Positions 6,461 through 36,972 of a stretch of DNA of 64,000 nucleotides are shown here, piece after piece (within the stretch, counting starts at the first letter, position 1; each line of letters begins with the position of its first letter). Made by a program: the position numbers and the translations under genes. Source of the DNA: a virus; IMG/VR virus record IMGVR_UViG_3300045988_112558, positions 28,997 through 92,996 of that record; one strand, 5' to 3'. The notes below the pieces were generated by a model that ran no database searches, had not been told where the DNA came from, and saw only the letters and a list, made by a program, of their open reading frames with translations.

Positions 6461-6533
6461 CGAAAATTAGCGTAGTGGATAACGCGGTATTCTGTAAAAA
6501 TACTTTTCATTGGTTCGAATCCAATATTTTCAT
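6461..6533 (+). tRNA. tRNA-Tyr (anticodon GUA), 73 nt, with a C1·A72 mismatch at the top of the acceptor stem.
   Basis: Hand-folded cloverleaf. Acceptor CGAAAAT/ATTTTCA (6 of 7 pairs). D-stem GCGT/ACGC with loop AGTGGATA. Anticodon stem GTATT/AATAC with loop CTGTAAA (U33, GUA, A37). Variable loop TTTTC. T-arm ATTGG-TTCGAAT-CCAAT. Discriminator T, no encoded CCA. Confidence 0.65.
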
Positions 6534-6589: not shown

Positions 6590-6681
6590 GTGATGGGGTT
6601 AGTTACTTCGAATTTAGCTCAGATGGATAGAGCGATACTCAGTTAAAGTATAGGTCGATGGTTCAAATCCATTATTTCATT
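6590..6681 (+). ncRNA. tRNA-like element 3: well-formed D, anticodon (GUU, Asn-like) and T arms but a non-pairing acceptor stem and A33 in the loop, preceded by the 5' box GTGGTGATGG...TTACTTCGAA. Either a degenerate tRNA-Asn or a tRNA-mimic ncRNA.
   Basis: D-arm GCTC-AGATGGATA-GAGC (6617-6633). Anticodon stem ATACT/AGTAT with loop CAGTTAA (6635-6651). T-arm GATGG-TTCAAAT-CCATT (6657-6673). The flanks TCGAATT / ATTTCAT pair at only 4 of 7 positions. The 5' box at 6592-6611 is shared with units 1 and 2. Confidence 0.4.
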
Positions 6682-27334: not shown

Positions 27335-29593
27335 ATGGGTGTCAAATGTCAGATAGAAAAAAAGGAAAATGAAATAAAACGGGTTAAGGCTCCTAACGGG
27401 GAGCCTTCCGTTCTTTACGAAAGTGCTTTAAAAGTATTAGGAAACAGCGAGCGGGCTCTTCAGGTATGGGCTAAGGCTTACACTCCTGGTTTTTCGTCGT
27501 ATTACGGTCATTGGAATAACCCGGCTCCAGGGGAGATGTTTAACACCGATCCCAATGGCGAACCTCTTTTAGAAGATGTGCTGTCGTATATGAAGCGTCA
27601 GACTTATTTTGCTGATCCTTTAACGGCTCAGGATGTTAAGGATGTAAGGGATTTCCTTTTGTCTACTCATTATTTTTTCAATGCGTCTTCATTGTCTAAT
27701 GCTATTCTCTTCGATTTTTATGTAGATGGCAGTTTGATACTGAATGAGCAGAAATTAAGGAGATCCGGTTTGTATGATGAAACAGAAATAAGTCGTATTT
27801 TATCCGATCCTTCTGTTTTAAACGAGGTTTCGACTTCCATGAGAAAGTTAATAGATTCTTCTATTAACGAACATGATAGGGAAAAAGATAATTATTTTAT
27901 GTCTATTGACTATCAGTATGGTCCTATTGTTTACAAGGAGGGAGTGTTTAACCAATTTGGTAAAAAAGTACCATATAATCCTTCTGAGCTTTATTATGCT
28001 ATGCGTAAAACAGTAGCCGGCATAAAAAACTTTTCTGAATTTTCATCTGCTTTTGAATCGTTGAGAAATTCATATCCTGAACTGGTTGAGAAATTCGTTT
28101 CTGATAAAGAATTTGCCGAATCTATGTTTGATGAGTTCTCATCTACGAATAAGATTCCGGTAATAAACATAGAAGGGGATGATGTGGTGGAAGGCAAGAG
28201 AAGATCTTTGTCTAAGCTACAAGATCTTTCTTATTACAATTCCGGCAAAATAGAGTTCCTAAGAGCTCGTATATCAGCTTATTTACATAGGGCTAATGCC
28301 GACACCGAATCCGATTTAAGAAGCATGATATGGGATATAGAAGAGGCTTGTACGTGGTTTGGCATAGATATAATAGGGACATCGGAAACTTATGATGGCA
28401 CAGAAGAATCTTTGAATAAGATAGATAATTTGATGCTGGATCTTGATATTTATGTGGCCAGGCATAATGATGTAAATTATGCTCCAACGCTGGCATCTTC
28501 TATAGATGATGTTCTTGGTGATAGTACAGACTATTATTTTGGATTATTGCCGGAGTATATGGATAATTTGAATATCGTTTATTCTGAATCCGATATAGAC
28601 CCAGTAGAGGCATTTGAGAAACATTCATTGCTTAAGGTAGGAGATAATCTATATCAAAGGATCAGCAAAGATGATCTTAACGAGATGTATCAAATATCAA
28701 CAGTATTAGCCAAGCACAACCTAACTCATTTTTCTACTAAAATATATCCTGAATCTTGTTTTAAGAACGGCGTTTTGGATAAAGAGAAAGTACGGAACGT
28801 AGATAATAATACGCTCATGGCTTCCATTAAAAAATACGTCAGATCGTTCATGGATTCTCAGAACACAGAGGACATGATAATGACCAGGATGGCGTTTGGG
28901 CACCCTGCGGTACTTGACGTTCCTTACGTGGATGTGGATCGGGAGTATAGTCGATACATGAACAAAAAACAAGATAGCGAAAACCCATTATCCTTATTCG
29001 ATTTATACCAATCTTACCTTGACAACAAACTCCATAAAACAAAATTATATGATAATGCCTATAAGTATCTTGACTTCAAACCTGGTCCATCTTTGGGTCT
29101 TATTTCTGATGATCCTGATATTTTGAAATCAATAGAATTATCTTTATCTGGAAAAGACAGGTTGATGTTGTTTGATTATAGCATGACCAGTACCGACCCT
29201 TCTTTATCAGAATTGTTTTATTTGGAGAGGTATGACCCTTCGTATGCTGGGAATGATTTTGAACACTATTTTTACACCAGGCACCCGTATTTGTTAAAAG
29301 AAAAATCGGGTTCTAATATCGTAGAGCAAGATGGTGTTATAACAGCAGAAGGTATTTATGATAATTTTATAAGAGTAGGTAATAAGATATGGTCTAAAGT
29401 AAGCGAGAGTAGTTCCGGCTCTATCTACCAAAATCTGACAGGAACCGAATCGGAGGTGAAATACGATTCTACTCAGAAGGCTAAGACGGTAGAAACTGAT
29501 TACGCTCCATACCAAAACAGATCTGGCTTGACGCAAGACATGACCGTAAGCAAGTCTGAATTGGATGATCTTAACAAATTAGAATGCAGGTAA
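27335..29593 (+). CDS. Large hypothetical protein (about 752 aa), last gene of the plus-strand operon.
   Basis: The listed ORF begins at a TTG (27314). The first ATG is at 27335. Followed by a terminator at 29636. Confidence 0.55.
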   Translation: MGVKCQIEKKENEIKRVKAPNGEPSVLYESALKVLGNSERALQVWAKAYTPGFSSYYGHWNNPAPGEMFNTDPNGEPLLEDVLSYMKRQTYFADPLTAQDVKDVRDFLLSTHYFFNASSLSNAILFDFYVDGSLILNEQKLRRSGLYDETEISRILSDPSVLNEVSTSMRKLIDSSINEHDREKDNYFMSIDYQYGPIVYKEGVFNQFGKKVPYNPSELYYAMRKTVAGIKNFSEFSSAFESLRNSYPELVEKFVSDKEFAESMFDEFSSTNKIPVINIEGDDVVEGKRRSLSKLQDLSYYNSGKIEFLRARISAYLHRANADTESDLRSMIWDIEEACTWFGIDIIGTSETYDGTEESLNKIDNLMLDLDIYVARHNDVNYAPTLASSIDDVLGDSTDYYFGLLPEYMDNLNIVYSESDIDPVEAFEKHSLLKVGDNLYQRISKDDLNEMYQISTVLAKHNLTHFSTKIYPESCFKNGVLDKEKVRNVDNNTLMASIKKYVRSFMDSQNTEDMIMTRMAFGHPAVLDVPYVDVDREYSRYMNKKQDSENPLSLFDLYQSYLDNKLHKTKLYDNAYKYLDFKPGPSLGLISDDPDILKSIELSLSGKDRLMLFDYSMTSTDPSLSELFYLERYDPSYAGNDFEHYFYTRHPYLLKEKSGSNIVEQDGVITAEGIYDNFIRVGNKIWSKVSESSSGSIYQNLTGTESEVKYDSTQKAKTVETDYAPYQNRSGLTQDMTVSKSELDDLNKLECR

Positions 29594-34680: not shown

Positions 34681-34899
34681 ATGGAATTAAAAGATTTTAA
34701 AGATGTGGTTAGAGTAATGACAAAAGAAGAGTTCGAATCAACAATCGAAGAAGATATTAAATTCGTTGAGGGATTCAAGAATTTCTTAAAACATGATGAT
34801 GCCACGAGAATAGTAGAGCATATCAAGTCTGTGTTAGAAGCATCAGTAGATTACTACTATCCTAATCATCCTGAAGTAGAATTTGAAAAAAGATTTTAA
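34681..34899 (+). CDS. Small acidic hypothetical protein (72 aa).
   Basis: ORF. Confidence 0.45.
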   Translation: MELKDFKDVVRVMTKEEFESTIEEDIKFVEGFKNFLKHDDATRIVEHIKSVLEASVDYYYPNHPEVEFEKRF

Positions 34900-35545
34900 T
34901 ATACAATACGATGTCAATAATATCTTGAACAAATACGGCCACACCGAAATGGGTATGTATAAAATACAGCTCTATATAGAGAATATTTTGGGTAGTATTC
35001 AAAACAAGAAGCCTGTAGACGTGGGAGAAGTCTCTGACGGATACCACACTTTCAATGAATTGTATCGGTATCGCATGTTGTATAACGCTGCCTTCTTTAA
35101 TCTATTAGCCAGAAACGGACAGGTTGAAGTTTGCAAATCAAGGAGACACAGCGATGGAGAAAAATGCTTCGGTTCTGATGATTGGTTTATTGTGATGGCG
35201 ATCCTACCTACCGGTCAGGTATCTAATCACTATGAAAGCAAATACTGGGATTTGTTTGATGTTCCTGAAAGAGAAACCGCTTTCGAATACGATGGCCATA
35301 CACCAAATGAAGCCGCCGACAGACTTAAAAAGTATCTCAAACTGCCTCGTCGTGGCATGACATTCGAACAGGCTTTAGAACGGCTTAAATTAGGTCGTAA
35401 GATAAAAAGAATCGATTGGGGTAAAAAGTATATCTGTATGTTTGACGTAAATATATTGATGGTAGATACAGGTCAAAAAGTAGCATCAAATTGGAATCCA
35501 ACCGAACATGATATTATGTCTAATGACTGGGAGATTGCGGGATGA
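34883..35545 (+). CDS. Two-part protein whose C-terminal 63 aa (nt 35357-35545) is a DUF2829 (Tad2-like) module. Candidate immune-signal sponge (anti-Thoeris type) fused to an unknown N-terminal domain.
   Basis: MTFEQALERLKLGRKIKRIDWGKKY...SNDWEIAG matches the DUF2829/Tad2 pattern M-x-F-x-EAL-x-x-LK-x-G-K/R-K-h-x-R-x-x-W ... DWEI(V). An internal ATG at 35357 could alternatively start a stand-alone module. Confidence 0.6.
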   Translation: MKKDFNIQYDVNNILNKYGHTEMGMYKIQLYIENILGSIQNKKPVDVGEVSDGYHTFNELYRYRMLYNAAFFNLLARNGQVEVCKSRRHSDGEKCFGSDDWFIVMAILPTGQVSNHYESKYWDLFDVPERETAFEYDGHTPNEAADRLKKYLKLPRRGMTFEQALERLKLGRKIKRIDWGKKYICMFDVNILMVDTGQKVASNWNPTEHDIMSNDWEIAG

Positions 35546-35751
35546 GTTTGTTTGTATGTTCAAAATGTGGCTGTATAGATAATACAGCCACATCATATTA
35601 CTGGGCTCTTATAAGACCTTGTAAGAATCGTATTTACGATAAGTCGCTAAAGGGATATGAAGGCAAGCCTCTTTGTTCTGAATGTGCCGCTATTGAATAT
35701 AGTAAGGGGGGGGGGAGAAGTGGTGGTAGTTCCTGGAACGTGGCATGGTAA
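35542..35751 (+). CDS. Small zinc-ribbon protein (69 aa) with an internal G9 homopolymer tract.
   Basis: CSKCGC...CSEC. Nine consecutive G at 35706-35714 encode KGGG. ATGA overlap with the upstream gene. Confidence 0.45.
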   Translation: MSLFVCSKCGCIDNTATSYYWALIRPCKNRIYDKSLKGYEGKPLCSECAAIEYSKGGGRSGGSSWNVAW

Positions 35752-35824: not shown

Positions 35825-36130
35825 ATGTGTGATAAGGAAATTGTTGTATGCGCAGCTATATGGGTTCAAGATCACAAGAACAAGCCTCACGGTCCAGTAA
35901 ATATACCATCCGGAACCGTATTTTGTGGATTGAGGCATTGTTCCATAATATCGCAACTTGCGGCATACGGTATAGCCCATAAAAACCGCAGTGTTCAAGG
36001 ATTTTTGACAAGCAAGAATCGGTTTTTAACAAGAGAGGAAGCGTCTGAACTTGTTAGAAACAATAATCAGGAGATGGTGGTAGATAGGAATGCCATTAGA
36101 GAACAGTTGTATTCAGAAGATTTGTATTAA
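35825..36130 (+). CDS. Hypothetical protein (101 aa).
   Basis: ORF. Confidence 0.45.
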   Translation: MCDKEIVVCAAIWVQDHKNKPHGPVNIPSGTVFCGLRHCSIISQLAAYGIAHKNRSVQGFLTSKNRFLTREEASELVRNNNQEMVVDRNAIREQLYSEDLY

Positions 36131-36147: not shown

Positions 36148-36498
36148 ATGGGATTTATAATCAGAAAGTCAATATTTTATGATATGATGGACGGCAATCA
36201 ATTAAAGTATGAATTTGACAACAGGGATTTAGATTATATCACATTTAAAGGTGATGGTAAAGAATCTTTTTCATTTAACAGAGCACTTGTTGAAAATTTA
36301 ATTGAGACATTTGAAACCATGCAGAATATATACTCCGATAATTATAGGCTTAAGGTTTATACTGGTAATTGCATAATTCAATTGAACGTAAATCCAAAGG
36401 ACCCCAGTGAATCCTTTTTTGACGTATATGATAGAGATGAGATGAAATTGATATACGGAATAAAGATCAGTATTCTGAAAGAAATGTTTATCATATGA
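36148..36498 (+). CDS. Hypothetical protein (116 aa).
   Basis: ORF. Confidence 0.45.
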   Translation: MGFIIRKSIFYDMMDGNQLKYEFDNRDLDYITFKGDGKESFSFNRALVENLIETFETMQNIYSDNYRLKVYTGNCIIQLNVNPKDPSESFFDVYDRDEMKLIYGIKISILKEMFII

Positions 36499-36812
36499 TT
36501 ACCAAGCAGGACATACAAGCAGCAGCATCGTATATTTTCCGAAGCAGTTTTGTCTCGGAGGACCAGGCAAGGAAAGCAATAGTAAGAGTCGGCAATAACG
36601 CTACCAAGATCCTCGTCAAGACCTTTAGAGGCAAGTTGTTCAAGAAAGCTTTTGAAAGAGCCCGTAGAGGAAAGGATATCAGTTCTTTTGAAAGACAGGA
36701 AAAAGAAAGTGGTTTCAATTTTCTACACAATCCTAATAATGGTCGTATGCAAAGCGGTCATATTATAATAGATGGAATTGGTCTGTTTAAACAAATAATT
36801 CATGAAAGGTAA
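36495..36812 (+). CDS. Basic hypothetical protein (105 aa).
   Basis: Overlapping start with the upstream ORF. Confidence 0.45.
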   Translation: MITKQDIQAAASYIFRSSFVSEDQARKAIVRVGNNATKILVKTFRGKLFKKAFERARRGKDISSFERQEKESGFNFLHNPNNGRMQSGHIIIDGIGLFKQIIHER

Positions 36813-36972
36813 AAAAGTTGATATTCGTTTAGGTAGAGGTCTGGCGAATCAGATTAAGATAAACAAAACCATTCCAGTGTCTCATAAACCAAAAGAAGAA
36901 CGTCGAATGATGTTTATTTGTGGTGATGATATTGCTTCTATTATAAAGCGGTTTGAAAACGAATCAAAGTAA
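36802..36972 (+). CDS. Possible 56-aa ORF (MKGKKVDIRLGRG...) not in the supplied track (under 60 aa).
   Basis: ATG at 36802 overlaps the upstream stop region. Ends at TAA immediately before the terminator 36978-37009. Confidence 0.3.
   Translation: MKGKKVDIRLGRGLANQIKINKTIPVSHKPKEERRMMFICGDDIASIIKRFENESK

Follow-up and report, generated by a model that had tools for sequence, protein, structure and literature searches.

Tad2 sponges provide phages with a main means of silencing TIR-based (Thoeris) immunity and some immunity of the cyclic oligonucleotide-based antiphage signaling system (CBASS). In SPO1 Tad2 (gp34.65; PF11195; PDB 8SME/8SMF/8SMG), the signal glycocyclic ADP-ribose (gcADPR) is held mainly by W25, N26, W73, and D79, with adenine contacts from T78, I63, and T65, in a pocket that lies where two protomers join through helix α1, and helix α2 in the β2-β3 loop gives rise to a V-shaped dimer (bioRxiv 2023.05.01.538930). 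HgmTad2 contains a larger insertion, residues 32-72, that forms a separate pocket for the cyclic dinucleotides cGG and cGAMP (bioRxiv 2023.11.15.567273). As a functional class, the Tad2 gcADPR sponges are homotetramers that hold their ligand where protomers meet; they bind 1''-3' or 1''-2' gcADPR, or His-ADPR in the ModTad2 clade, and so relieve Thoeris defence. In AcrIIA7 the DUF2829 tetramer core binds trans-activating CRISPR RNA (tracrRNA), and a 48-aa N-terminal head domain abolishes this activity (PMC13133391, 2026). Moreover, fusions of Tad2 with Acb4 or with PF21825 (Sequestin) are frequent, Sequestin having been discovered by "guilt by fusion" to Tad2 (Tal et al. 2025, PMC12265669), and one protein that joins Acb4 and Tad2 blocks Thoeris as well as CBASS (PMC12265669). 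Here we describe a gene combining a Tad2-like (formerly DUF2829) module with a WDGH domain (PF25311), located at 34681..35545 on the + strand of a 64,000-nt stretch of viral DNA, hereafter the window (positions 28,997 to 92,996 of IMG/VR record IMGVR_UViG_3300045988_112558). The ancestral gene consists of three parts, a small N-terminal helical module, WDGH, and a minimal Tad2-like module, and in the window it is divided by a frameshift. What is new at this locus is a minimal, pocket-variant Tad2 module, the swapping of Tad2 cassettes behind a constant WDGH domain, and WDGH itself as a candidate immune-signal-targeting family; Tad2 fusions, the catalogued WDGH family, and the protein as a DUF2829 entry in GenBank were already known.

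Domain architecture of the split gene

The original prediction, made from the letters of the window, had reported an open reading frame (ORF) in which a C-terminal DUF2829 module of 63 aa follows an unknown domain of 158 aa. The ORF exists as described, with its TTG start and its length of 220 aa, and a profile search of both halves, as the prediction had proposed, assigns each of them to a Pfam family (Table 1). The C-terminal part (residues 159-218) matches PF11195, Tad2-like, with E 4.5e-11 and 43.5 bits against a curated gathering cut-off of 25 bits, covering positions 1-72 of the 73 in the profile, and the module alone, 62 rather than 63 aa long, gives E 7e-13 and 49.3 bits. The supposedly unknown partner is in fact a catalogued, although uncharacterised, Pfam family, since residues 48-150 match WDGH at full length (E 9e-37, 125.7 bits, cut-off 27; profile positions 1-96 of 97) with every family-invariant residue kept. 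In the AlphaFold2 model of the ORF (m5f6b28b8d590), which reaches a mean predicted local distance difference test (pLDDT) score of 89.3, residues 1-47 (34883-35023) form a helical hairpin with pLDDT of about 90. In place of these ~47 residues between the N-terminal module and WDGH, only ~8 residues (PEAEPGDM) are found in relatives of the P0018/P0046 type and in csAssE-Sib, a 151-kb human-gut Caudoviricetes phage that is ~95% identical to the window and whose orthologue is a 251-aa coding sequence annotated "DUF2829"; this linker difference is an indel polymorphism spanning the frameshift site.

The idea that Tad2 proteins normally stand alone, on which the original prediction leaned, is outdated, as Acb4 and Sequestin fusions are frequent (PMC12265669) and most of the 120 best matches listed (of 2727) carry WDGH and Tad2-like domains together. 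Judged from these proteins, the WDGH-Tad2 fusion is real and common, and triple fusions of WDGH, PF21825, and Tad2 also exist (e.g., P0114). The arrangement resembles the known sponge fusions (Acb4-Tad2 of Pasteurella phage Pm86; Sequestin-Tad2; PMC12265669) in that Tad2 and another small phage module share one polypeptide, and the logic of one protein against several signals recurs in relatives with WDGH-Sequestin-Tad2. It differs from them in its partner, because WDGH is not a known sponge or enzyme and is absent from that survey.

Comparison with relatives indicates that the ORF corresponds to the 3′ two-thirds of a frameshift-split gene of 287 aa and not to a whole gene. The nearest database proteins have lengths of 287-291 aa and share 95-97% identity over the entire ORF, and two of them, P0001 (287 aa) and P0004 (291 aa), run uninterrupted through the join (...EVEFEKDFNIQYD...). 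The N-termini of these homologues equal the product of a 72-aa ORF (34681..34899) found immediately upstream in a different frame. In the DNA, the window reads GAAAAAAG (A6), vs. GAAAAAG (A5) in four independent contigs (L002, L003, L005, L006), and as a result of the additional A the first ORF stops at TAA 34897-34899 and the remainder falls into the +1 frame. The 72-aa product itself has no family match in Pfam, PHROG, or NCBIfam. Its exact sequence (…EKRF*) was recovered from at least 23 contigs that stem from independent sequencing runs, which rules out a sequencing error and means that the split allele is real and circulating; two Logan contigs (runs SRR2240291 and SRR2240318) match the window at 100% identity along the 865-bp gene. 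Downstream of the split, the ORF of 196-202 aa called from ATG 34949 is intact in all eight of the split-allele places shown, on both 62-aa and 66-aa Tad2 backgrounds. A second, independent disruption lies a few codons further on, a nonsense codon (…EKDFNI*) that is found in 46 blocks of the collection and is even more widespread than A6, and here too WDGH-Tad2 is still intact downstream (L013, L016). By cluster size (812 member sequences for P0001, 2378 for P0002, 327 for P0004, and 399 for P0006), intact fused alleles are the majority among relatives. Programmed frameshifting or transcriptional slippage at A6 was considered and set aside, as only +1 or -2 would repair the frame, the A tract is short, and A5 is simply the common form; an ordinary indel allele explains the split more simply.

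As for the start of the downstream product, TTG 34883 is the first start-type codon past a stop and not a demonstrated start, and in identical alleles the gene callers choose ATG 34949, giving a protein of 198 aa that exactly matches GenBank DAF05808.1 ("MAG TPA: Protein of unknown function (DUF2829)"). Most likely, the WDGH-Tad2 product of the split gene is translated from this ATG. The locus thereby carries a lesson for annotation, in that a first-pass ORF may be a fragment of a frameshift-split gene.

Table 1. Position and content of the features that make up the WDGH-Tad2 locus in the window.
Feature	Position	Strand	Description
5′ fragment of ancestral gene	34681..34899	+	72-aa ORF (MELKDFKDV...EVEFEKRF*) encoding the N-terminal module; ended early by the frameshift
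ORF as reported	34883..35545	+	220 aa, counted mechanically from TTG; encodes helical linker, WDGH, and mini Tad2-like module
A6 homopolymer, frameshift site	34886..34891	+	one A above the A5 of intact alleles
WDGH domain (PF25311)	35024..35332	+	ORF residues 48-150
Minimal Tad2-like (DUF2829) module	35357..35545	+	62 aa plus stop codon (ATG 35357 to 35542); helix followed by small antiparallel sheet

The minimal Tad2-like module and its WDGH partner

Far beyond chance, the module belongs to the Tad2-like family and has its core fold, an N-terminal helix, an antiparallel sheet, and a C-terminal DW(E/D) strand. A phmmer search against PDB sequences retrieves SPO1 Tad2 (8sme, E 3e-5 for the module), ModTad2 (9eib), HgmTad2/AcrIIA7 (8kbi), and SptTad2. 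The structure prediction, run on the monomer, agrees with this assignment, since Foldseek aligns the AlphaFold2 model with the solved Tad2 chains 8wje, 8smf, 8v3e, and 9eib at E 5e-5 to 1e-3 and probability 1.00, and the target-normalised template modelling scores vs. the SPO1 Tad2 and ModTad2 structures are 0.72-0.75. Within residues 159-220 (pLDDT about 90) the model contains helices at 161-169 and 208-212 and strands at 174-176, 182-187, 190-195, 200-203, and 216-218, and all secondary-structure elements around the gcADPR pocket are retained. The module thus shares with SPO1 Tad2 the Pfam family, the core fold ending in a DWE motif, and the setting of a phage accessory gene, and with HgmTad2/AcrIIA7 and SptTad2 of Bacteroidota phages (PDB 8KBI-8KBM, 8WJD, 9KZR) the DUF2829 core and gut-phage origin. 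An N-terminal addition to this core also has a precedent in the 48-aa head domain of pdAcrIIA7. Unlike SPO1 Tad2, the module sits behind WDGH and is only 62 aa long, compared to 89 aa.

When the pocket residues of SPO1 Tad2 were mapped to the ORF through HMMER alignments, W25 (W179), T65 (T196), W73 (W204), and D79 (D210) turned out to be kept, and I63 (V194) and S76 (T207) are replaced conservatively. N26 and T78 are changed, to G180 and H209, respectively, and accordingly the module reads DWGKK where all four characterised Tad2 proteins read GWNGK. In the same alignments, the β2-β3 insertion (SPO1 residues 36-59) is reduced to ~2 residues (D188-V189), which leaves SPO1 chain residues 35-59 and HgmTad2 residues 31-76 unmatched. 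The HgmTad2 insertion, which carries the cGG/cGAMP pocket and two tracrRNA-contact residues, is therefore absent; the cyclic-dinucleotide pocket is gone with it, and binding of the HgmTad2 type is not expected. With the insertion and two ligand-contact residues lost, binding of either gcADPR or cyclic dinucleotides cannot be assumed, and the altered residues of the pocket suggest that its ligands are not canonical gcADPR. The minimal module also shows which parts of the Tad2 fold are expendable.

The WDGH partner is widely distributed and strongly conserved. The family comprises 3752 representatives of 50%-identity clusters at E ≤ 1e-3, and among 146 diverse representatives the residues D52, H55, E59, K85, S86, H89, N115, H116, Y117, W122, D137, and H139 (ORF numbering) are invariant, all of which are present in the ORF, together with the family motifs SDGYHTF.ELY, KS..H.DG, SNHY, and (W/Y)DGHTP; the motif behind the family name is YDGH in the ORF, and the two WDGH cysteines vary within the family. 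A model of the domain alone (pLDDT 94.3) consists of a long helix, a three-stranded sheet, and two more helices. WDGH occurs in 197 phage records, all labelled hypothetical, among them Listeria P100-like, Bacillus Tsamsa-like, P22-like, Streptococcus, and Lactococcus phages; P22-like ST64T carries it as an additional gene, situated between its coat gene and gene 4. It is also found, at 45-72% identity, in genomes of many bacterial phyla and in an archaeal metagenome-assembled genome (MAG) of Methanobrevibacter, where it is a stand-alone protein of 116 aa (L046). The corresponding PHROGs are 3392, 3769, and 21846.

Searches for a characterised relative of WDGH gave negative results. Foldseek of the ORF model against the PDB returned Tad2 alone, on the C-terminal module, and a hidden Markov model profile built from the 146 WDGH proteins gave 0 matches to PDB sequences. 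The BFVD structure search found only uncharacterised or "WDGH domain-containing" phage proteins; a literature search with "WDGH" and "PF25311" returned no relevant paper, and a survey of polyvalent proteins (PMC5512222) has no mention of DUF2829, WDGH, DUF551, or YopX. Scans of the WDGH-Tad2 protein with PADLOC and NCBIfam likewise gave no match. Only three of the 146 best-scoring cluster representatives carry a Tad2-like module, the remainder being stand-alone or joined to other partners that are mostly unannotated in Pfam and PHROG scans; GNAT, sigma-70 region 4, Myb, YccV, and FaeA appeared as partners in single cases, too sparse to interpret. In P0120, WDGH is fused to a dATP/dGTP diphosphohydrolase N-terminal domain. 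A Nocardia locus (L031) whose tblastn coverage reached residue 220 was rejected as a second WDGH-Tad2 fusion, since by eye its 571-aa ORF is WDGH within repetitive Ala/Arg/Glu-rich sequence without Tad2 motifs.

Two further observations concern the surroundings of WDGH. In Bacillus phage vB_BanS_Nate (L007 2848-4048), the stand-alone WDGH gene gp134 overlaps the start of the NADAR-family gene gp135 immediately downstream, a single observation that makes a link to ADP-ribose metabolism possible. Many long WDGH proteins of 500-640 aa (such as P0193, P0260, P0176, and P0244) are chains of modules joined by the recurring linkers …FPEL.ESEDEKIRKE…, …WLEKQGEQ…, and …ATKEQRD.LFQKMKEAGYEWD…, resembling polyvalent multi-module proteins, with no other module annotated.

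Variation at the locus and proposed function

Among close relatives, WDGH is 94-98% identical and the Tad2 module falls into discrete identity classes of 100, ~90, ~73, ~60, and ~34%, the ~90% class being a 66-aa module with an IVES insert. The pocket of mini-Tad2 cassettes varies as well, reading DWGKK…HD, DWGGK…ND, GWKNE…ED, or KWNDK…KD. In more distant relatives, with WDGH 70-84% identical, the Tad2 modules are long (96 aa), some with a PF21825 (Sequestin) domain in between, and modules with the long insertion of HgmTad2 and SptTad2 are fused to WDGH in P0092 and P0114. Across 11 alleles of the window's own class, which are not independent of one another, segregating changes (synonymous/non-synonymous) number 13/6 in WDGH and 0/9 in the Tad2 module (Fisher P = 0.0008). 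The Tad2 module also has zero synonymous differences from csAssE-Sib, though the proportion of synonymous differences (pS) in WDGH is 0.13. The variable Tad2 sites include V194I, at the I63 equivalent, N203T, beside the W73 equivalent, and E208K, beside the T78/D79 equivalents. From this pattern we infer that the Tad2 cassette has been recently shared or swept and may now be gaining amino-acid changes, either by diversifying selection or through relaxed constraint; WDGH is under purifying selection.

The architecture itself is also unstable. In two relatives (L010, L012) a 1-nt deletion after DGHTP, in the C-terminal helix of WDGH, has produced separate genes for WDGH (225 aa) and Tad2 (66 aa) with an ATGA overlap; in two others (L009, L011) WDGH is deleted and the Tad2 gene kept, and in P0300 and P0303 the deletions extend into the Tad2 module. 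Taken together, these alleles mark the locus as a hot spot for indels, deletions, and insertions, a pattern typical of accessory and anti-defence genes. A different kind of insertion is observed in L014 (1982-2625) and L015 (2271-2625), corresponding to window positions ~35180-35545, where a 406-aa RRXRR-HNH gene follows a truncated WDGH gene and takes the place of the 3′ part of the Tad2 module; P0094 resembles a read-through of this junction. If the RRXRR-HNH gene is a homing endonuclease, it could drive cassette exchange at the WDGH/Tad2 junction.

The most reasonable reading of the fused Tad2-like module is a modular anti-defence protein, in which the Tad2 cassette would sequester a TIR-type nucleotide signal and WDGH would act as a second module, a reading that we hold with middling confidence. 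Of the fused anti-defence protein originally predicted, what has stood is that the Tad2-like module follows another domain in frame and that the gene sits in a row of small accessory genes; the ORF as a complete gene has not, being a fragment of the split 287-aa gene. As regards mechanism, we infer that the Tad2-like cassette would oligomerise through helix α1, and that the pocket of W179, W204, and D210 between protomers would sequester an ADP-ribose-derived signal of putative Thoeris-type TIR systems of the host, giving an anti-defence phenotype; the ligand may differ from canonical gcADPR because N26 is replaced by Gly and T78 by His and the insertion is missing. More tentatively, WDGH may be the constant, strongly constrained module behind which sponge cassettes are exchanged, and may well have a second, independent activity, binding or processing a nucleotide-derived molecule, possibly as a catalyst. 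Its fusion to Tad2-like modules and at times to Sequestin, its wide conservation, and the absence of a solved structure or literature make WDGH a concrete candidate for a further immune-signal-manipulating family. A bolder version appears doubtful, though possible, in which WDGH would be a new and widespread counter-defence module, acting enzymatically or by high-affinity binding on a universal nucleotide-derived immune signal or its precursor, and serving as a chassis for swapped mini-Tad2, long Tad2, and Sequestin plus Tad2 cassettes, with mini-Tad2 variants reading undescribed TIR signals.

A number of points weigh against an anti-defence sponge of this kind. N26 contacts the phosphates in both SPO1 Tad2 and HgmTad2 and belonged to the inactivating W21A/N22A double mutant, and T78, now His, provides the sole adenine hydrogen bond in SPO1 Tad2. 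The absent α2 insertion is part of the V-shaped dimer interface, hence the tetramer may not form. The amino-acid excess in Tad2, seen among 11 alleles only, may stem from relaxed constraint and not from an arms race, and the Tad2 module is dispensable, as it is truncated or deleted in P0300, P0303, L014, and L015. WDGH is without detectable similarity to characterised proteins, so that its proposed role rests only on fusion partners and conserved polar residues.

Other explanations of the same observations have to be weighed. The higher constraint on WDGH (13/6 vs. 0/9), its 45-72% identity across many bacterial phyla and the Methanobrevibacter MAG, and a set of invariant residues that resembles an active site (D52, H55, E59, K85, S86, H89, N115, H116, D137, H139) would also suit a capture-and-process enzyme, in which WDGH is a metal-dependent or His/Asp-based effector on a nucleotide-derived molecule and the Tad2-like part is a substrate-capturing, regulatory, or oligomerising appendage. 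The stand-alone 116-aa form, the dATP/dGTP diphosphohydrolase partner domain, and the NADAR-family gene directly downstream in phage Nate point in the same direction. We nevertheless consider such an enzyme unlikely, since each part occurs independently of the other, WDGH in that only three of its 146 best-scoring representatives carry Tad2-like and Tad2 in that it survives the deletion of WDGH, and since validated sponge-sponge fusions act independently (PMC12265669). Least probable of all is an RNA binder of the AcrIIA7 type, whose DUF2829 tetramer would sequester host guide or tracr-type RNA in a basic groove, with N-terminal additions gating the activity. Such binding and head-domain gating have a precedent (PMC13133391), which the coexistence of natural alleles with and without N-terminal parts echoes, and the α1/β1 region is very basic (K169, R172, K173, K175, R176, K181, K182). 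However, of the five groove residues of pdAcrIIA7, mapped via the HgmTad2 alignment, only two are kept (K58 as K169, K71 as K182), while K93 and R101 lie in the deleted insertion and K66 corresponds to I177. The groove-forming tetramer depends in part on the missing α2 region, and the anti-Cas9 activity of the same protein family was not reproduced by Li et al. (bioRxiv 2023.11.15.567273).

The remaining alternatives concern what the split gene still makes. It could be decaying, the frameshift being the first step in pseudogenisation of a dispensable accessory gene with no functional product, since the +1 shift cuts two-thirds of the gene off from its start codon, a G10 tract frameshifts the adjacent downstream gene as well, and deletions and truncations abound at the locus in relatives. 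This is quite improbable in view of the recurrence of the A6 allele on at least 23 contigs from independent runs with the 196-202-aa WDGH-Tad2 ORF intact in eight of eight places shown, of a separate nonsense allele (…EKDFNI*) that also spares this ORF (L013, L016), of an in-frame ATG 50 nt past the upstream stop, and of purifying selection on WDGH. An additional nested product, the 62-aa Tad2 module translated alone from ATG 35357, would be compatible with a modular anti-defence protein and had been raised in the original prediction. The same ATG does start a separately called gene of 62-66 aa in close relatives, both those with the 1-nt deletion (L010, L012) and those lacking WDGH (L009, L011), which lends it partial and indirect support, and for AcrIIA7 it is the short form that is active (PMC13133391). 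In the window, on the other hand, this ATG just lies in frame, homologues do not conserve it as a start but have Leu (P0020, P0046), Ile (P0027), or Lys (P0110) there, and the preceding 30 nt (…CTGCCTCGTCGTGGC) are G+C-rich, in contrast to the A-rich leader at 34681, which leaves separate translation here an outside prospect.

Neighbouring genes

The gene belongs to a series of small ORFs on the + strand that has structural genes on one side and a 2148-aa ORF on the other; a replication module follows on the - strand. Eight small neighbouring ORFs between 33562 and 37345 were scanned, with no match to any family of known function. For the 101-aa ORF 35825..36130, relatives carry a precomputed Pfam match to PF26092 (T4_Y16D) and phrog_839 matches at E 1e-17; a direct Pfam scan of this ORF gave no match at E ≤ 0.01. 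The cGAMP-cleaving family Acb5 was considered as an identity for WDGH or for this neighbour and dropped, as the published description of Acb5 offers no link.

The G10 tract (35706-35715, within ORF 35542..35751) is the only run of nine or more G in the window. It stands where relatives read GGGAGACG, a net gain of 4 nt, and it frameshifts the adjoining Cys-rich gene (CxxC…CxxC), leaving 69 aa and a 54-aa ORF in another frame, compared to L005 and L010, where the product has 91 aa. No exact copy of the 69-aa product was found in the protein collection, and the tract could be either hypervariable or an assembly artefact. At L009 3394-4533, corresponding to window positions ~36150-36900, the accessory run of a related 147-kb phage contig contains an inserted IS605 OrfB/Cas12f-like TnpB gene of 379 aa. 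Farther away in the window, genes for tRNA-Tyr (GTA; 6461-6533) and tRNA-Asn (GTT; 6608-6681) lie upstream of a 544-aa ORF that matches the PHROG "RNA-binding protein".

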